Below are positions 1,527 to 12,498 of a DNA stretch of 12,498 bases, piece by piece. Made by a program: the position numbers and the translations under genes. Position 1 is the stretch's first letter; each line of letters begins with the position of its first letter. The notes beneath the pieces are model-generated. The model saw only the letters and a list, made by a program, of their open reading frames with translations. It was not told where the DNA came from and did not search any database. This DNA is from a virus (taxonomy: Duplodnaviria; Heunggongvirae; Uroviricota; Caudoviricetes), in the IMG/VR virus record IMGVR_UViG_2896595138_000006, one strand, 5' to 3'.

Positions 1527-2952
1527 TAATGCCGATCAGTTAAGGATCAGTTGACCGATCCAGTGGCTGTGTAAGAATCCGGAAACGCTCACTTGTTTCC
1601 GGATTTTTTTATGCACATTGGACAGGCTCTTGATCTGGTATCCCGTTACGATTCTCTGCGTAACCCACTGACTTCTCTGGGGGATTACCTCGACCCCGAA
1701 CTCATCTCTCGTTGCCTTGCCGAATCAGGTACTGTAACGCTACGCAAGCGCCGTCTTCCCCTCGAAATGATGGTCTGGTGTATTGTTGGCATGGCGCTTG
1801 AGCGTAAAGAACCTCTTCACCAGATTGTGAATCGCCTGGACATCATGCTGCCGGGCAATCGCCCCTTCGTTGCCCCCAGTGCCGTTATTCAGGCCCGCCA
1901 GCGCCTGGGAAGTGAGGCTGTCCGCCGCGTGTTCACGAAAACAGCTCAGCTCTGGCATAACGCCACGCCGCATCCGCACTGGTGCGGCCTGACCCTGCTG
2001 GCCATCGATGGTGTGTTCTGGCGCACACCGGATACACCAGAGAACGATGCAGCCTTCCCCCGCCAGACACATGCCGGGAACCCGGCGCTCTACCCGCAGG
2101 TCAAAATGGTCTGCCAGATGGAACTGACCAGCCATCTGCTGACGGCTGCAGCCTTCGGCACGATGAAGAACAGCGAAAATGAGCTTGCTGAGCAACTTAT
2201 AGAACAAACCGGCGATAACACTCTGACGTTAATGGATAAAGGTTATTACTCACTGGGACTGTTAAATGCCTGGAGCCTGGCGGGAGAACACCGCCACTGG
2301 ATGATACCTCTCAGAAAGGGAGCGCAATATGAAGAGCTCAGAAAACTGGGTAAAGGCGATCATCTGGTGAAGCTGAAAACCAGCCCGCAGGCACGAAAAA
2401 AGTGGCCGGGACTGGGAAATGAAGTGACAGCCCGCCTGCTGACCGTGACGCGCAAAGGAAAAGTCTGCCATCTGCTGACGTCGATGACGGACGCCATGCG
2501 CTTCCCCGGAGGAGAAATGGCGGATCTGTACAGTCATCGCTGGGAAATCGAACTGGGATACAGGGAGATAAAACAGACGATGCAACTGAGCAGGCTGACG
2601 CTGAGAAGTAAAAAGCCGGAGCTTGTGGAGCAAGAGCTGTGGGGTGTCTTACTGGCTTATAATCTGGTGAGATATCAGATGATTAAAATGGCGGAACATC
2701 TGAAAGGTTACTGGCCGAATCAACTGAGTTTCTCAGAATCATGCGGAATGGTGATGAGAATGCTGATGACATTGCAGGGCGCTTCACCGGGACGTATACC
2801 GGAGCTGATGCGCGATCTTGCAAGTATGGGACAACTTGTGAAATTACCGACGAGAAGGGGAAGGGCCTTCCCGAGAGTGGTAAAGGAGAGGCCCTGGAAA
2901 TACCCCACAGCCCCGAAAAAGAGCCAGTCAGTTGCTTAACTGACTGGCATTA
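1527..2952 (+). mobile_element. Insertion sequence IS4, complete copy (1426 bp)
   Basis: Terminal inverted repeats TAATGCCGATCAGTTAAG (1527-1544) and CTTAACTGACTGGCATTA (2935-2952), 16/18 match. The 1426-bp length and the 442-aa transposase agree with IS4 as remembered. Flanked by a 13-bp direct duplication. Confidence 0.92.
1611..2939 (+). CDS. insG: IS4 transposase (DDE family)
   Basis: 442 aa starting [16 protein letters not shown]. Matches the E. coli IS4 transposase essentially throughout, from memory. A hairpin plus T run (1577-1610) sits immediately before the ATG. Confidence 0.92.
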
Positions 2953-3280: not shown

Positions 3281-3478
3281 TTATTCTGATTCTTTGGCCT
3301 TCCTGCGCTGTTCATATTTTAATTTGCGTCCACAGGCATCTAAGACCCATGCGGAAAAATTAGCACTAGGATTAGTTAATTTTTCTTGTTCAACGCTGGC
3401 ATAAACCCCATCTATAAGCTCATGTGGGAATCGAATATTTTTCTTTGCTGATTTGTTGTTTGTGTTACCGCTAGACAT
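3281..3478 (-). CDS. Arc/Mnt-like ribbon-helix-helix DNA-binding protein (putative repressor)
   Basis: 65 aa. The segment NIRFPHELIDGVYASVEQEKLTNPSANFSAWVLDA resembles the beta-strand plus two-helix pattern of P22 Arc (..NLRWPREVLDLVRKVAEENGRSVNSEIYQRV..). Shine-Dalgarno GAGGT lies 6 nt before the ATG on the minus strand. Divergent from an operator-bearing promoter. Confidence 0.6.
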   Translation of the reverse strand: MSSGNTNNKSAKKNIRFPHELIDGVYASVEQEKLTNPSANFSAWVLDACGRKLKYEQRRKAKESE

Positions 3479-3505
3479 TGATGCACCTCACTTAAATGGA
3501 CTTTA

Positions 3506-3586
3506 TGGGCGCACACAATACAGCAAAAAAAATGAGATGTTAAGTATTGACATGTGCGCACACATGATTTTAATCTGTGCGCACAG
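3506..3586 (+). promoter_or_regulatory. Rightward sigma70-like promoter (TTGACA 3547-3552, 16-bp spacer, TTTAAT 3569-3574) with palindromic operators TGTGCGCACA at 3553-3562 and 3576-3585 and a 9/10 copy at 3506-3515
   Basis: Hexamers and perfect 10-bp palindromes read directly. One operator sits in the -35/-10 spacer and one at about +1; the third lies in the leader of the divergent RHH gene. Confidence 0.45.
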
Positions 3587-3846
3587 TTTGAGTTTTGTCA
3601 CTCAAATTAAGCAACGCCCCGCAGTGCTCGCAACACATGCAGGGCGTCTAACCACCAACGATAGCAACAGTATCGAGGTAGCTATGTTAAATCATACCAC
3701 ACACCTGCAAGGGCGGGACTCGCACAACCTGAATAAAGCGGGTATGAAAAACCAGTTGATCGCCACTGCCAGCCAAGGCTATGATTCGCGTGCACCTTAT
3801 AAAACGGGTGCCGGGATTAGGACCCCGCTGACAATCGAGGCGATAC

Positions 3847-3869
3847 AGACGCCGCACGCGTCTTTTTTT
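3847..3869 (+). terminator. Intrinsic terminator inside the rightward leader (AGACGC-cgcac-GCGTCT then T7)
   Basis: 6-bp stem 3847-3852/3858-3863, T run 3863-3869. Lies about 280 nt downstream of the promoter and before the first icd-like unit. Could define a leader RNA or an attenuator. Confidence 0.4.
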
Positions 3870-3931
3870 GTATCGACGCACACGCACACCTATACAATGG
3901 TGGGCTGTATGGGGCTACCTTCGGGTAGGCT

Positions 3932-4028
3932 GGTTCCCTTGATTGCCAGTAGTCCTAACCCTGTACAGTCCACCGCCAGCGAGCTTAGGACCTCCGGCGG
4001 TGGTTACATTCCATCAATCAAGGAGGCT
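3932..4028 (+). promoter_or_regulatory. Unit-1 leader element: anti-Shine-Dalgarno segment (3932-3945) complementary to the Shine-Dalgarno region (4015-4028) of the first icd-like ORF
   Basis: CCTTGATTG (3937-3945) is the exact reverse complement of CAATCAAGG (4015-4023), which overlaps the Shine-Dalgarno sequence AAGGAGG (4020-4026). Confidence 0.35.
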
Positions 4029-4034
4029 GCCGAC

Positions 4035-4223
4035 ATGGCTACTACCCCTACCCTTGTACATTCTCAAACAGCCTTTCTCTGGCGCTTTATCGCCTTTGGT
4101 GCGTCAGAGTCCCAAATCATCCACGTCACCGCCTGGACTGAACGCGAAGCGCGTAACCATTGCCCGTCCGGTTGTGTTGCTGTATTCGCGGCCCGTATTC
4201 GTCAGGGGGTTGGCCATGCGTAA
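4035..4223 (+). CDS. Small Icd-like/Ash-family protein (62 aa); a longer in-frame form could begin at ATG 3897
   Basis: Strong Shine-Dalgarno AAGGAGG 8 nt upstream of the ATG at 4035. Motifs FLWRF, TAWTEREAR and FAARIRQG are shared with the downstream paralogue. The family name is recalled from annotations of P4-like islands, not verified. Confidence 0.55.
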   Translation: MATTPTLVHSQTAFLWRFIAFGASESQIIHVTAWTEREARNHCPSGCVAVFAARIRQGVGHA

Positions 4224-4315
4224 AAACAACTTGCAAAAAATTACCGTGGGGCTGTATTCTTCCCCGTCGCCCACATGGCGACCGGGTTTGACAGCCTGAA
4301 TAGCAAAGCGGACAG

Positions 4316-4344
4316 CCGCTTACATTCCGATATGCGGTTTTTTT
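4316..4344 (+). terminator. Terminator-like hairpin plus T7 run between the two icd-like units
   Basis: CCGC (4316-4319) and GCGG (4334-4337) flank a 14-nt loop, followed by T run 4338-4344. An alternative tight hairpin GCGG-acag-CCGC lies at 4308-4319. Same position relative to unit 2 as the terminator at 3847-3869 has relative to unit 1. Confidence 0.3.
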
Positions 4345-4409
4345 GTGTCCGTAAACCTACCCATACCCGCATTATGGCGGGGCGTAACGGGGGAGCCTTT
4401 GCGCTCGCT

Positions 4410-4502
4410 GGTTTCTTTGCTGCCAGTCTGTCAACCCTGTTACGTCCCGCCACCATGTTTGACAGCGTGCTGGCGAGACTCCTTACATCAAGCAAAGGAG
4501 CC
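4410..4502 (+). promoter_or_regulatory. Unit-2 leader element: anti-Shine-Dalgarno segment (4410-4421) complementary to the Shine-Dalgarno region (4491-4502) of the second icd-like ORF
   Basis: GGTTTCTTTGCT can pair with AGCAAAGGAGCC over 12 positions (10 Watson-Crick plus 2 G-U), covering the Shine-Dalgarno sequence AAAGGAG (4494-4500). Confidence 0.35.
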
Positions 4503-4508
4503 TTTCAC

Positions 4509-4682
4509 ATGGCTGTATCCGCACGCCCTTACTTTGTCTGGCGCTTTATGCAGTGCCTGACAGACAGCATTGCAATATTCACCGTTACCGCAGCCACTGA
4601 ACGCGAAGCCCGCGCGCAGCTGCCGCACGCACATCTGATTTTTGTCGCCCGTATTCGCCAGGGGGAAACCTATGCACAATAA
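4509..4682 (+). CDS. Small Icd-like/Ash-family protein, paralogue of 4035-4223 (57 aa); a longer in-frame form could begin at ATG 4374
   Basis: Shine-Dalgarno AAAGGAG 8 nt upstream. Shares WRF, TEREAR and ARIRQGE motifs with the upstream copy, with DNA-level similarity across the unit. Confidence 0.55.
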   Translation: MAVSARPYFVWRFMQCLTDSIAIFTVTAATEREARAQLPHAHLIFVARIRQGETYAQ

Positions 4683-4893
4683 AACCACACCGGACGCAGC
4701 CGCCGCCGCACTCACTACGCTGATGCACGCGCTTATTGATATTGAATGCACAGCAGAGCTTGCACGAAAGGAAGAACGGGAAGAATACACATTGTTCGCC
4801 CTGGAATGTATCCGATACATCGCAACGCGGTCGCTGAATGACGCTAAAAATATTCTTGTTGCTGATTGTGAAAATGGGGGGTGCCCCTATTAA
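4672..4893 (+). CDS. Hypothetical protein (73 aa)
   Basis: Start overlaps the stop of the preceding ORF (ATGCACAATAA), suggesting translational coupling. GGGGGAA lies upstream. Stop is 13 bp from the end of the IS110-family recombinase gene, so the 3' end may have been altered by the insertion. Confidence 0.45.
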   Translation: MHNKTTPDAAAAALTTLMHALIDIECTAELARKEEREEYTLFALECIRYIATRSLNDAKNILVADCENGGCPY

Positions 4894-4906: not shown

Positions 4907-6103
4907 TTATGACCCCTGCGGGGTATAAAAAGTCCCGTCGCGCATCATGGCGAACAGAACGTCGCAGCGTCGTCTCGCCAGGGCGATAAGCGCCTGATTG
5001 TGTCGTTTTCCCTGACTCATTTTGCGGGTGTAGTAAGCCCTGGAGAGCGGATCCCTGAGCGCGGCGAAGGCCAACAGGAACAACGCCCGTTTGAGAGCTT
5101 TATTACCCCGTCGCGAGGGATGCTCACCGCGTATTGACGAGCCGGATCGCCGAGTTACCGGCGCAAGGCCAGCATAAGCAGCGAGATGTGCGGCAGAGGC
5201 GAAGGCGCGGCAGGCGACCTCGGTGAGGAGTCTGGCTGCGGTCCTGACACCGACTCCGGGCATACTGGTCAGGACCGGGTAAAGAGGGTGAGCAAGAACT
5301 CGCTGTTCTACCTCAAGCGCCACCTCGTCTCTTTGCTTACGCAGCGTGATGAGCTGGAGTGCCAGACGTGGCAGTACTACGGCAGCGGCATTCGTGCCGG
5401 GAACGACGACGGTTTGTTCGGCCAGTGCCTGAGCTATGTCTGCTGCAAGGCGTTTACCCAGACGAGGCGCAAGTTTGCAGAGCTGGGCTGCCAGCTTCTT
5501 CTCACCCAGCGAAGCGAGTTTTTCTGGTGAGGGATATCGCTGGAGAAGATCGAGTACCGCCGGGTGCTCAAGTCTCGGACCGAGAACGCGCTCCAGTGCC
5601 GGATGTATCTGGGTCAGAAGGCCGCGGAGACGGTTGCTGGCCTGCGTTGTCTGTGCGGCAAGATCATCATCGAAGCCGCAGAGCATGGAGAGTTCGGCGA
5701 TTTGCTCGTCAGCCAGTTTCAGCGTGCGTAGCGCGTGAGGCAGGGTACGGGCAGCTTCGGCAATGATGGCAGCGTCACGAGCATCAGTTTTAGCTTCACC
5801 GGCGTGTAAGTCGGCTATGCGGCGCATGGCCAGTCCAGGGAGGTATCCGACAAGGACTCCTTCTGAGCGGGCAACGGCGACAGGTAACGCACCGATGGTA
5901 GCTGGCTGATCAACAACCAGCAGTATCTGACCATGTTGTTTCAGGTCAGATATTAGCGACCTGAGTTTGTTTTCGTCGTTGGGTAATGCTTTATCGAACA
6001 GGCGTTTACCTGAACGATTAATGGCAACAGCGTGATGCGTATCTTTACCGACATCAACGCCGATAAAGACCTGGACGGATTCGTAATCGCTGGATTCGGT
6101 CAT
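4907..6103 (-). CDS. IS110-family transposase/recombinase (N-terminal DEDD RuvC-like domain plus C-terminal Transposase_20 domain)
   Basis: N-terminus VFIGVDVGKDTHHAVAI and C-terminal LTSMPGVGVRTAARLL...AAYAGLAPVTRRSGSS are the hallmark motifs of IS110-family enzymes. Shine-Dalgarno AGGGAG lies 5 nt before the ATG on the minus strand. Confidence 0.9.
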   Translation of the reverse strand: MTESSDYESVQVFIGVDVGKDTHHAVAINRSGKRLFDKALPNDENKLRSLISDLKQHGQILLVVDQPATIGALPVAVARSEGVLVGYLPGLAMRRIADLHAGEAKTDARDAAIIAEAARTLPHALRTLKLADEQIAELSMLCGFDDDLAAQTTQASNRLRGLLTQIHPALERVLGPRLEHPAVLDLLQRYPSPEKLASLGEKKLAAQLCKLAPRLGKRLAADIAQALAEQTVVVPGTNAAAVVLPRLALQLITLRKQRDEVALEVEQRVLAHPLYPVLTSMPGVGVRTAARLLTEVACRAFASAAHLAAYAGLAPVTRRSGSSIRGEHPSRRGNKALKRALFLLAFAALRDPLSRAYYTRKMSQGKRHNQALIALARRRCDVLFAMMRDGTFYTPQGS

Positions 6104-12113: not shown

Positions 12114-12498
12114 GTGGCTACTCAGACTGAAGTTGCCAGGCATTTGAGTCTGACCGATCGCCAGCTTCGCAGATTACAGAAATTGTTCCCCCATCACTAT
12201 GGAAACCATAACCATGACCGACGCCGAACTACTGAAAGTAATCCGCCGTATTACCGGAATCTGTCAGGCAACAGGCAAACAGGTGGCCACGCAGCCGGAC
12301 AGCGTCACCGCTGAAAATTACGCGCGTGTGGTGGCTGAGGTGATGCGCCGTGACGGTATTGAGCTTAACGGCGTGGATATGCGCAACATACGAACAAGAG
12401 TCCTTGAGTTGCTGGCATATCGTCGCCGTTCTCAACAACGGAGGGAGAGCGCGAAAAATACTTACCAGTGGAGGAAGCCGGAGCACTTACGGCGGTAA
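12114..12498 (+). CDS. Putative HTH-type DNA-binding protein (possibly small-terminase-like or a regulator), apparently frameshifted at a C5 run (12188-12192); alternatively an independent ORF 12214-12498
   Basis: GAGG lies 6 nt before GTG 12114. The N-terminus ATQTEVARHLSLTDRQLRRLQKL looks like a helix-turn-helix, but that frame then becomes low-complexity and stops at 12314. The +1 frame (12199-12498) reads as a normal protein and ends exactly at the window end. Deleting one C from the C5 run fuses the two into a ~128-aa ORF. Confidence 0.4.

Follow-up and report, generated by a model that had tools for sequence, protein, structure and literature searches.

The window analyzed here is a stretch of viral DNA of 12,498 nt. 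Between positions 3847 and 4682, it carries two similar units in tandem, each with a leader followed by a short open reading frame. Do these leaders encode proteins or regulatory RNAs, and what do they control? A first-pass annotation, made from the raw sequence alone, had read them as noncoding RNA that masks the ribosome-binding site of the short ORF, and this sufficed to recover an antisense-RNA switch that is real and has strong covariation support.

The region is very probably composed of two serial IsrK/seqA - C4/CI - icd/kil RNA immunity modules as in P4 and P1. It is also, with the same high confidence, the early-operon control region of a phage-satellite island. Each unit has the complete P1/P4 layout, i.e., a1-b1, a terminator, a C4 RNA with a' and b', and a2-b2, where b2 overlaps the Shine-Dalgarno sequence. 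Judged by sequence, unit 1 is P4-type and unit 2 is P1-type. IsrK-C4 immunity is a kind of system already in the literature. The tandem arrangement with two different specificities seems to be the sole aspect that has gone unremarked.

The island encodes an integrase, an AlpA-like ORF, a P4-family primase domain, an SSB, and a lambda-E-type capsid gene. The primase gene is located downstream of the RNA modules, as are the SSB and capsid genes. The capsid gene bears the PGAP label of major capsid protein in a homologous island. None of sid, psu, or delta was seen within the window, which ends at 12498. The island contains two insertion sequences and may be defective:

1593-2939, IS4-family element, insertion sequence in the island
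4907-6103, IS110-family element, insertion sequence in the island

Organization of unit 1

Unit 1 is made up of the following features:

3792-3869, plus strand, IsrK/seqA-type leader RNA (Rfam RF01394, 64 bits; gathering score, 50)
3847-3869, intrinsic terminator (hairpin 3847-3863 and a run of seven T to 3869)
3893-3980, plus strand, C4/CI-type antisense RNA no. 1 (Rfam RF01695, 78.6 bits, full model covered)
3985-4026, plus strand, downstream targets a2 (TTAGGAC, 3985-3991) and b2 (CAATCAAGG, 4015-4023)
4035-4223, plus strand, icd/kil-like gene 1, 62 aa (NF033153, 60.1 bits)

The IsrK match passes the gathering score and spans 3792-3868, corresponding to a 77-nt RNA. This RNA has two hairpins, with a1 (TTAGGAC, 3817-3823) in the loop of the second and b1 (CAATCGAGG) at 3832-3840. 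In C4 RNA no. 1, the b' loop (3934-3945) contains the anti-Shine-Dalgarno core CCTTGATTG (3937-3945), the a' joiner lies at 3952-3958, and a GCCA tail is found 3' of the closing stem. Homology with P1 c4 places the predicted mature RNA at ~3899-3977.

The core of the b' loop matches the reverse complement of CAATCAAGG at every position; the latter overlaps the Shine-Dalgarno sequence AAGGAGG (4020-4026), and the 9-mer is single in the window. By chance, exact complementarity over 9 nt between a loop of ~12 nt and the ~30 nt preceding a start codon is expected ~3e-4 times. An alternative hairpin (3970-3977 paired with 3996-4003) carries the a2 element in its loop. Predicted cognate duplex energies for the unit 1 targets are -14.3 and -9.3 kcal/mol. 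The Shine-Dalgarno sequence ends at 4026, 8 nt before the ATGGCT of icd-like gene 1 (ATG 4035), and the stop codon of this gene overlaps an ATG (ATGCGTAA, 4216-4223).

Organization of unit 2

Unit 2 and the gene that follows it comprise:

4254-4344, plus strand, c4-a1b1/IsrK-like leader, P1-type (a1 TTGACAG, 4288-4294; b1 AGCAAAG, 4302-4308)
4316-4344, weak hairpin and run of seven T (4-bp CCGC/GCGG stem, 14-nt loop)
4370-4457, plus strand, C4 antisense RNA no. 2, P1-type (RF01695, 74.8 bits, full model covered)
4459-4502, plus strand, downstream targets a2 (TTGACAG, 4459-4465) and b2 (AGCAAAGGAG, 4491-4500), the latter overlapping the Shine-Dalgarno sequence
4509-4682, plus strand, icd/kil-like gene 2, 57 aa (NF033153, 53.6 bits)
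4672-4893, plus strand, next ORF, 73 aa (no family match; a homologous CDS is annotated in E. coli EH41)

The leader of unit 2 scores 38.1 bits against RF03163 (E = 1e-7, 4254-4302), below the gathering score of 46.7; unit 1 scores 17.7 bits, P1 51, and P4 44.1. Against the isrK model RF01394, it reaches 35.4 bits (4266-4344), under the gathering score of 50. Despite the sub-gathering score, the alignment makes homology to the c4-a1b1 motif of P1 plain, and the leader is ~80% identical to P1 immI. No convincing promoter for unit 2 itself was found on reading 4233-4262.

A hairpin followed by seven T had been proposed for both units. The site at 3847-3869 is a clean terminator-like site in the terminator scan, whereas the one at 4316-4344 is weaker; it was not flagged by the scan, and the minimum-free-energy fold favors other small hairpins. 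The latter site is homologous to the same position in P1.

C4 RNA no. 2 has a b' loop at 4412-4421 (CTTTGCT, 4415-4421), the a' element CTGTCAA at 4428-4434, and a tRNA-like ACCA tail. GGTTTCTTTGCT (4410-4421) pairs with AGCAAAGGAGCC (4491-4502) over 12 positions, two of which are G-U. The Shine-Dalgarno sequence AAGGAG ends at 4500, again 8 nt before ATGGCT (ATG 4509). All sequence strings quoted in the first-pass annotation lie where it placed them, both of its anti-Shine-Dalgarno pairings are exact (the 9 nt of unit 1 and the 12 positions of unit 2, with the two G-U included), and it correctly gave the strong Shine-Dalgarno sequence and its spacing in both units. Absent from it were the a' element with its a2 target and the upstream a1 and b1 copies, in both units.

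The 73-aa ORF starts within the last bases of icd-like gene 2 (ATGCACAATAA) and is therefore probably translationally coupled to that gene, as ant1 is to icd in P1. It would be the first gene with expression dependent on both switches.

Upstream promoters and the long open frame

Upstream of the unit 1 RNAs are the following features:

3281-3478, minus strand, divergent YlcI/YnfO-family gene (family match)
3547-3574, plus strand, sigma-70-like promoter read from the sequence (TTGACA 3547-3552, 16-nt spacer, TTTAAT 3569-3574)
3551-3566 and 3575-3586, two TGTGCGCACA palindromes overlapping this promoter, putative operators for the divergent gene
3684-4223, plus strand, long open frame of 180 codons in the ORF list (ATG 3684, GAGG 3675-3678)
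3756-3785, plus strand, internal promoter-like site from the promoter scan (TTGATC, 18-nt spacer, TATGAT)

The upstream promoter was missed by the promoter scan because TTTAAT lacks an A at position 2. The promoter/operator region at 3547-3586 is the proposed equivalent of the regulated upstream promoter of P4. The internal site ends 6 nt 5' of the first base of IsrK, a position that matches PLE of P4, and its -10 element GCTATGATT is conserved in the alignment of related units. A promoter function is likely on these grounds.

The long frame traverses IsrK and C4 no. 1 and terminates as icd-like gene 1, like eta/kil of P4. Its first 18 codons are the N-terminus of the "short-form" Icd-like proteins of relatives. 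A truncated Icd-like N-terminus is present at 3684-3737.

A third C4 target was considered at ATCGAGG (3672-3678), before ATG 3684, where the predicted duplex with unit 1 b' is -11.3 kcal/mol. This candidate was discarded: in 45 related loci, the strongest complementarity 5' of IsrK does not rise above background and varies in position, and the GTATCGAGGTAGC motif is unchanged across b' types.

Family membership, RNA fold, and covariation

Both leaders are members of the C4 family RF01695 (gathering score, 45 bits), and their scores compare with 74.9 bits for P4 CI and 68.8 bits for P1 c4. The match of P1 c4 and P4 CI to the same model bears out the suggested likeness to P1 c4 over icd-ant and to P4 CI. 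The short ORFs, described earlier as ~60 aa in length, both match NF033153 (phage_ICD_like; curated cutoff, 25 bits), where P1 Icd scores 52.6 and the P4 kil frame 73.9 bits. By this match, both are Icd-like, with cell-division inhibition as a putative function.

The minimum-free-energy folds of both C4 RNAs give the family structure, namely a long closing stem around two hairpins, one of tetraloop type and the other with a loop of ~12 nt. The z-scores of this three-stem fold are -4.6 (no. 1) and -6.5 (no. 2). Compensatory pairs are found at 9 of 28 stem pairs in seven sequences. Sequence hallmarks of RNase P-type processing are also present: the closing stem has U|GG on its 5' side and is followed by GCCA or ACCA.

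All six elements (a', b', a1, b1, a2, and b2) are located in both units. Covariation shows the pairing of a' with a2 and of b' with b2. In 35 related units, 94.4% of cells are paired at these contacts, against 30-50% in slid controls, and changes are two-sided in 13 of 19 pairs. The upstream contacts, a1-a' and b1-b', are paired in 95.7% of cells of the 35-sequence alignment, with two-sided change in 13/16 pairs. Over both contact sets, slid partners are paired in 30-52% of cells, and none of 500 shuffles attained the observed values. The first-pass annotation had staked its selected RNA duplex, masking the Shine-Dalgarno sequence of the icd-like genes, on covariation in a wider alignment. Two-sided covariation is what the wider alignment holds, so the duplex stands.

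There are 22 distinct b' loops and seven distinct a' joiners among ~100 copies. The cognate target is best or equal-best for b'-b2 in 26/29 cases and for a'-a2 in 19/19, and 0/10,000 permutations reached the observed mean. Cross-pairing of b' is predicted to be ~4-5 kcal/mol weaker than cognate pairing; the gap is small because all b' loops share the anti-Shine-Dalgarno core. The covariation set consists mainly of E. coli-type viral and metagenome contigs, since a wider scan of genome contigs gave eight loci, mostly Icd-like genes without C4.

Alternative explanations

The leaders could be primarily protein-coding. In this case, the frames 3684-4223 and 4275-4682 would be "Ash"-type proteins with a C-terminal Icd domain, and the complementarities would be secondary. 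Pfam Phage_ASH does match the translation of 3780-4065, and the PGAP labels on such DNA are "ash family protein" and long Icd-like or Rha ORFs. The indel that was said to shift the frame between the leaders is a 1-nt indel in the loop and is compensated: the distance between the C4 start and the ATG, 142 nt in unit 1, is shorter by 3 in unit 2 (139 nt), which leaves both leaders open in frame with their icd-like genes. Of 57 distinct variants, 51 have no stop in this frame across IsrK and C4, while the other two frames have means of 5.4 and 2.5 stops. For the corresponding long ORF of P4 (eta, with kil as its end), translation driven from an upstream promoter overrides immunity, according to the passage of PMC10111431 that cites Forti 1999. 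However, leader variation has no codon periodicity (0.66/0.54/0.64), whereas that of the icd ORF is periodic (0.23/0.24/0.44), with an excess at third codon positions. The amino acid sequence of the leader is not under selection. Substitutions instead track RNA stems and RNA-RNA contacts, P1 has no open frame through c4 despite the same RNA module, and three variants shift frame by 1 nt before the ATG. A primarily coding role is unlikely, and the leaders evolve as RNA. The earlier statement that they are not coding holds as far as periodicity goes, but it is unproven because the frame is kept open in 51 of the 57 variants. The best reading is regulatory translation-through without a functional Ash polypeptide. 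In unit 2, the second read-through frame is discontinuous from ATG 4216, as that ORF stops at 4299, and the option of bypassing unit 2 by translation, which E. coli EH41 has, may for this reason be lost here.

Pairing might also act only in cis, with the leader sequestering the Shine-Dalgarno sequence of its own mRNA and with neither a trans-acting RNA nor immunity. Loop and target do lie on one transcript ~70 nt apart, the conserved alternative hairpin joins the 3' strand of C4 to the a2 region, and translation of the Gifsy-1 isrK-orf45 mRNA is controlled by intramolecular alternative structures (PMC4825925). This is very unlikely given the closed, very stable three-way C4 fold and its tRNA-like NCCA tail, which typify the P1 and P4 RNAs matured by RNase P. 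P1 c4 and P4 CI, from the same Rfam family, are proven trans-acting immunity factors (PMC5320573, PMC3632133), and a simple sequestering hairpin has no need of the upstream a1/b1 copies that a' and b' also match. The least probable of the three is an inactive relic, with the tandem units as decaying duplicates without present function in an island disrupted by insertion sequences. The IS4- and IS110-family elements, the truncated Icd-like N-terminus, and the broken second read-through frame relative to E. coli EH41 are compatible with decay, but in each unit all six specificity elements are preserved and match one another. Moreover, the two C4 copies reach scores on a par with those of P1 and P4, neither icd-like ORF is interrupted, and the same arrangement of two units is found again in further contigs, where the specificities are different but still match.

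Proposed mechanism

Under two serial RNA immunity modules, the constitutive internal promoter at 3756-3785 would generate, by homology, the 77-nt IsrK-type RNA ending at the terminator at 3847-3869. RNase P cleavage and 3' trimming of read-through transcripts would produce a ~79-nt C4 RNA. C4 would then act in trans on later transcripts, where the a' joiner pairs with a2 and the b' loop pairs with b2 over the Shine-Dalgarno sequence of the icd-like gene. The icd-like gene would remain untranslated, and therefore transcription would stop early through Rho-dependent polarity and the next terminator, leaving the downstream replication genes silent. The upstream a1/b1 copies, in IsrK RNA and the nascent leader, would bind the same C4 elements. 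Their role may be to help termination as seqA does in P4, or to titrate C4, in line with the IsrK activator model and the P1 decoy model.

The P1-type unit 2 would repeat this logic with another a'/b', placing two RNA locks before the 73-aa ORF and the genes beyond. Escape would come from the operator-controlled promoter at 3547-3574, which would send ribosomes from ATG 3684 through IsrK and C4. This translation would block RNA folding and termination, as eta translation does in P4.

Shared specificities and implications

Unit 1 has the exact specificity of the IsrK-C4-antirepressor module of Stx2 phages, and the a' of unit 2 is common to P1. The locus might then be a serial two-key RNA lock whose keys are common to other mobile elements, allowing helper sensing at the RNA level; this idea is tentative and rather improbable. 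If true, the early operon of the satellite would be wired into the RNA immunity networks of resident and incoming phages. The C4 RNA of a co-resident phage could silence the satellite, and a burst of phage IsrK/a1b1 decoys at infection or induction could titrate satellite C4 and turn the operon on. Systematic co-residence with a phage of the same specificity is unsupported, as, of 5,426 complete E. coli genomes, 84 carry the 41-nt unit 1 b'/a' signature, mostly in a single copy and never in more than two. The exact specificity of unit 2 was found in one IMG/VR contig only, a sibling island; P1, D6, and P7 share the a' element only.

Two features are possibly new biology, i.e., the stacking of P4-type and P1-type modules in one operon of a capsid-encoding satellite, and one specificity exactly common to Stx2 phages. 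Should they matter functionally, they would bear on the mutual sensing of satellites and helper phages. The 22 loop variants, with targets matched on both sides, constitute a natural covariation data set. In addition, what annotations call an "ash family protein", or the N-terminal portion of long Icd-like or Rha proteins, is at the DNA level an IsrK plus C4 RNA locus.

Comparison with known systems

The direct counterpart of unit 1 is P4 immunity (PLE - seqA - CI RNA/seqB - seqC - kil in eta). The IsrK model matches P4 seqA, the C4 model matches P4 CI, and the promoter position, the terminator after seqA, and the two-part targets upstream and downstream are alike. P4 and unit 1 also share the Shine-Dalgarno context GGAGGCTGCC-N-ATGGCTAC. 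The 65-aa kil frame of P4 is Icd-like, a long frame (456 nt in P4) is open through the RNA genes, and a P4-family primase is found downstream in the island. In contrast to the one module of P4, there are two serial modules here, the second P1-type, and the a'/b' specificities of the island are unlike those of P4. The long-frame start of the island (ATG 3684), 3' of the regulated promoter, is common to short Icd-like genes. The island also differs from P4 in its capsid gene and in the lack of sid, psu, and delta in the window. C4 and isrK matches have been reported in Gram-negative PICIs by a study that also summarizes the eta/kil mechanism (PMC10111431).

Unit 2 is 75-82% identical to immI of P1, D6, and P7 (a1 b1 - c4 - a2 b2 - icd - ant1/2 in P1/P7). 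The a', a1, and a2 elements are identical (CTGTCAA/TTGACAG), the annotated sites are equally spaced in a layout that is near base for base, the icd ribosome-binding site lies under b2, and icd overlaps at its end with the following gene. Published work covers RNase P processing at GG and what a' and b' do (PMC5320573, PMC2864571). The b' loop is TTTCTTTGCTG in unit 2 and TTTCACTAACG in P1, so unit 2 is probably heteroimmune with P1. Downstream is a 73-aa ORF without a family, rather than the antirepressor of P1. The icd frame is open through the RNA here and closed in P1, and the C1 operator is absent here.

The IsrK - STnc1160/orf45 - anrP locus of Salmonella Gifsy-1 and the IsrK-C4-Rha modules of Stx phages have the same Rfam pair, IsrK then C4. 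In Stx2 phage F039, annotated with both RNAs, a1, b1, a', b', a2, and b2 are exactly as in unit 1. Antirepressors (Rha/AnrP) are controlled in those phages, whereas icd-like genes before replication genes occupy this position here. In Gifsy-1, a leaky terminator marks the end of the short IsrK RNA, and transcription past it supplies the coupled downstream gene; IsrK is treated as a seqA homologue, with a processed ~80-nt RNA downstream (PMC4825925). That work explains regulation mainly via IsrK as a translation activator, not via C4 repression.

RNA families and pairing elements

Each of the two tandem icd-like units encodes a C4 antisense RNA with the structure of that family and four co-varying contacts, one of them on the Shine-Dalgarno sequence of the icd-like gene. 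Scanning the window against Rfam yielded three matches that reach the gathering score (two C4, one IsrK). In unit 2, a more permissive scan added a c4-a1b1 motif and an IsrK-like match below threshold, which takes in the second T-run. Thus, the two "leaders" of the first-pass annotation are C4 RNAs, and its first hairpin and T-run are the IsrK terminator.

Rfam and NCBIfam matches in the two units
3792-3868, IsrK RNA, unit 1 (RF01394, 64 bits)
3893-3980, C4 antisense RNA, unit 1 (RF01695, 78.6 bits)
4035-4223, icd-like ORF 1, 62 aa (phage_ICD_like, 60.1 bits)
4254-4302, c4-a1b1 motif, unit 2 (RF03163, 38.1 bits, E = 1e-7, more permissive scan)
4370-4457, C4 antisense RNA, unit 2 (RF01695, 74.8 bits)
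4509-4682, icd-like ORF 2, 57 aa (phage_ICD_like, 53.6 bits)

Folded alone, each C4 RNA adopts the three-stem structure of the family (z = -4.6 in unit 1, -6.5 in unit 2). The sequence strings quoted earlier are all located where they had been placed. In unit 1, CCTTGATTG (3937-3945) is the exact reverse complement of CAATCAAGG (4015-4023), and this 9-mer occurs once in the 12.5-kb window. In unit 2, GGTTTCTTTGCT (4410-4421) pairs with AGCAAAGGAGCC (4491-4502) over 12 positions, two of them G-U. Both targets extend into a Shine-Dalgarno sequence ending 8 nt 5' of ATGGCT (ATG at 4035 and 4509). Two hairpins with T7 runs had been proposed; the one at 3847-3869 is clean and intrinsic-terminator-like, but that at 4316-4344 is weak, with a 4-bp stem and a 14-nt loop, unflagged by the terminator scan and disfavoured by the fold.

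The single contact per unit described by the first-pass annotation, between loop and Shine-Dalgarno sequence, is present but is one of four, laid out exactly as those annotated in P1. The C4 loop (b') and joiner (a') are the specificity elements, with upstream targets a1 and b1 and downstream targets a2 and b2.

Elements of the two units
Promoter-like site: 3756-3785 (TTGATC, 18-nt spacer, TATGAT), ending 6 nt 5' of the first base of IsrK
a1: unit 1, TTAGGAC 3817-3823, in an IsrK hairpin loop; unit 2, TTGACAG 4288-4294
b1: unit 1, CAATCGAGG 3832-3840; unit 2, AGCAAAG 4302-4308
Terminator or T-run: unit 1, 3847-3869; unit 2, 4316-4344 (weak)
b' (C4 loop): unit 1, 3934-3945; unit 2, 4412-4421
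a' (C4 joiner): unit 1, AGTCCTAA 3951-3958; unit 2, CTGTCAA 4428-4434
a2: unit 1, TTAGGAC 3985-3991; unit 2, TTGACAG 4459-4465
b2: unit 1, 4015-4023; unit 2, 4491-4500

The PLE promoter of P4 has the same place relative to seqA as the promoter-like site has to IsrK. A possible second partner for CCACCGCC (3970-3977), the 3' strand in the closing stem of C4, is GGCGGTGG (3996-4003) downstream; this pairing puts a2 in a hairpin loop (columns 199-232 of the alignment of related units). It is kept in relatives by two-sided change (CCGCCACC with GGTGGCGG in comparison locus L019) and represents another fold of the transcript before processing.

Covariation of the contacts

Comparison loci, 168 in all, were collected from genome, viral, and metagenome contigs using the Icd-like protein as an anchor independent of the RNA. 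Approximately 100 C4 copies were located by covariance model and nhmmer; among them are 22 distinct b' loops and at least 7 distinct a' joiners, combined in various ways. Contacts were scored as the longest contiguous pairing, with G-U at half weight, and for each of the four the observed cognate mean was reached by 0 of 10,000 permutations.

Contact scores (cognate mean; non-cognate mean; cognate best or equal-best)
b' with b2: 9.07; 4.85; 26/29
a' with a2: 7.05; 3.95; 19/19
b' with b1: 7.22; 4.72; 25/38
a' with a1: 5.32; 4.32; 15/38 (an underestimate, as the a1 window of this scoring clipped the IsrK-type a1 site)

A formal count used an alignment, with almost no gaps, of 35 P4-type units, including those of a Stx2 phage and a P1-like phage. 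Standard pairs fill 94.4% of cells in the 19 downstream pairs, versus 30-50% with partners slid by 1-3 columns, and 13 of the 19 show two-sided changes. The 16 upstream pairs are 95.7% paired, with two-sided change in 13. Observed values were reached in 0 of 500 shuffles for either set, counts that are not probabilities because the sequences are related; the slid controls preserve relatedness and score far lower. Pairing at these levels confirms the selected RNA-RNA duplex proposed in the first-pass annotation, which had named covariation in a wider alignment as a check, and extends it to three further contacts.

A few units have a b' loop that has lost its match to their downstream b2 while b1 or a2 still fit (L092 1206-1345; L125 725-864; L091 2837-2976; L151 542-684), e.g., loop TTTCTTTGGTT alongside a AACATAGGAG-type b2. 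These units could be recombinants or immunity-escape variants.

Coding status of the leaders

The leaders had been considered non-coding. Their amino-acid sequence is indeed unconserved, but their frame stays open. From the start of C4 to the ATG there are 142 nt in unit 1 and 139 nt in unit 2, and the icd frame is open through both leaders. Over approximately 255 nt, this frame is stop-free in 51 of 57 distinct leaders, the second frame in none, and the third in 11. By codon position, column entropy averages 0.66/0.54/0.64 in the leaders, i.e., without codon periodicity, and 0.23/0.24/0.44 in the icd-like ORFs, the usual third-position excess. Together, the stop-free frame and the lack of periodicity indicate that openness is kept and amino-acid sequence is not. 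The indel cited as a non-coding argument does not hold, as the change between a 12-nt and an 11-nt loop is compensated.

The same picture is described for P4 eta/kil. P4 kil forms the last part of a longer frame, eta, translated only from an upstream promoter, and eta translation blocks termination that depends on immunity (PMC10111431, summarising Forti et al. 1999). In P4, the open stretch ahead of kil is 456 nt long; that of P1 measures only 33 nt.

Pfam PF10554 (Phage_ASH) matches the translation of 3780-4065, in the frame of ORF 3453-4223, which is the IsrK and C4 region. The P4 "cI gene product" ORF (L171 8168-8584, minus strand) likewise covers the CI RNA and the Icd-like end. Phage_ASH and PGAP "ash family protein" calls therefore mark the RNA locus; they represent a read-through frame and no independent protein domain.

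Each icd-like gene ends in a start/stop overlap (4216-4223, ATGCGTAA; 4672-4682, ATGCACAATAA). In Escherichia coli EH41, which carries a homologous island, the ATG overlapping icd1 opens another eta-like frame of 155 codons (L001 4767-5231), which crosses the second a1b1 and C4 and continues into icd2. Its counterpart in the window ends at 4299.

Island context

Features of the island outside the two units
1-795, integrase fragment
1593-2939, plus strand, IS4-family transposase gene, between an AlpA-like ORF and the YlcI/YnfO gene
3281-3478, minus strand, YlcI/YnfO-family gene (DUF3950), divergent, adjoining the promoter
3547-3586, upstream promoter overlapped by TGTGCGCACA palindromes
3610-3650, leader hairpin
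4672-4893, 73-aa ORF, probably coupled
4907-6103, minus strand, IS110-family transposase gene, directly after the 73-aa ORF

The island also encodes a P4-family primase, SSB, and a capsid gene, called major capsid protein by PGAP in the 91%-identical EH41 island. It has the look of a capsid-encoding PICI-type satellite more than of a classical P4. Matches to parts of the region are present in 1,722 of 5,426 complete E. coli genomes. The island is broken up by two insertion sequences, the IS4-family and IS110-family elements listed above. The IS110-family gene separates the RNA switches from DUF4222 and the primase; in sibling contig L010, the second C4 is interrupted after 20 nt.

Architectures among 170 loci (not de-duplicated, seeded with the window's own protein)
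icd only, without any C4: 90
C4-icd: 30
icd-C4-icd: 30
C4-icd-C4-icd: 12
icd-C4-icd-C4-icd: 7
icd-C4, broken by contig end: 1

The promoter palindromes vary between islands (GTGTATTTCAC, GTGTGTTTCATG, and GTGTACCCCCAC elsewhere) and always adjoin a small divergent gene (L156, L047, L008, L004, ~2330-2400); the arrangement looks like a set of repressor-operator pairs of varying specificity. The leader hairpin (GCCCCGCAGTG...CAGGGCG; GCCCGGCAGTG...CCGGGC in Klebsiella and Pantoea) is conserved 3' of the regulated promoter in all island types (L047, L008, L004, ~2410-2470). It is followed by CTAACCACCAACG and a Shine-Dalgarno region resembling b2 sites (AACGTAACTGAGGCT).

The first 18 codons from ATG 3684 (3684-3737, MLNHTTHLQGRDSHNLNK) equal the N-terminus of "short-form" Icd-like proteins (L156 2464-2515; P0091, P0093, P0096). 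In relatives, genes for these lie directly 3' of the same promoter and leader, without IsrK or C4. The window looks like a short-form gene with an IsrK-C4-icd cassette recombined after codon 18, or else the short form is a deletion.

Shared specificity and proposed mechanism

All six elements of unit 1 (a1, b1, a', b', a2, b2) are exactly those of Stx2 phage F039 (L172 1501-1770), which is annotated with IsrK and C4. In Stx2-converting phages, among them the O104:H4 outbreak lineage, this module lies ahead of the antirepressor-type gene. Approximately 25 Stx2a phage records show 88.6% identity over this segment. Of 5,426 E. coli genomes, 84 contain the unit 1 b'/a' signature, which mostly lies beneath ORFs annotated "Rha family phage regulatory protein"; in Stx2-converting phages, the PGAP "Rha family" ORF runs across the C4 RNA. 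Because C4-type RNAs act in trans, cross-regulation in a cell with both satellite and phage is plausible. The signature is found at most twice per genome, so there is no sign of systematic satellite-phage pairing in these 5,426 genomes.

By analogy with P1 and P4, the C4 RNA would be processed by RNase P, act in trans, block icd-like translation, and cause premature termination ahead of the 73-aa ORF and, beyond the IS110-family insertion, DUF4222 and the P4-family primase. As sequence hallmarks, the closing stem has U|GG on its 5' side and is followed by GCCA or ACCA. The upstream a1/b1 sites may help termination, as in P4 seqA, or may serve as a decoy or activator, a role proposed for P1 and, in another form, shown for Gifsy-1 IsrK (PMC2864571 supplement; PMC4825925). 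Two modules in series would confront transcription with two RNA-controlled checkpoints. Predicted duplex energies are ~-14.5 kcal/mol cognate versus ~-10 cross for the b' loops and ~-9.3 versus ~-3 for the a' joiners, suggesting partial orthogonality of the two specificities.

Comparison with P4 and P1

The IsrK-C4 system at this locus is already known. The c4 and c4-a1b1 motifs were described in PMC2864571, IsrK as a seqA homologue with a processed ~80-nt RNA downstream in PMC4825925, and C4 and isrK matches in Gram-negative PICIs in PMC10111431. No description of tandem modules of different specificities, or of a P4-type and P1-type pairing, was found in the literature searched.

The P1 immI region and complete P4 were scanned with the same Rfam models. 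In P4, the CI RNA is a C4 match (74.9 bits), the seqA leader is an IsrK match (60.8 bits), the "cI gene product" ORF ends in a C-terminal Icd-like domain (73.9 bits), and kil is a 65-codon frame beginning ATGGCTACAACC. Unit 1 is P4-like throughout, including the terminator sequence and the context GGAGGCTGCC-N-ATGGCTAC. In P1, c4 scores 68.8 bits and the a1b1 motif 51 bits. The immI regions of P1, D6, and P7 are 75-82% identical to unit 2; the P1 a', a1, and a2 sequences are those of unit 2, but the b' loop differs. The locus is thus a P4-type module followed by a P1-type module, a modest addition to the known system.
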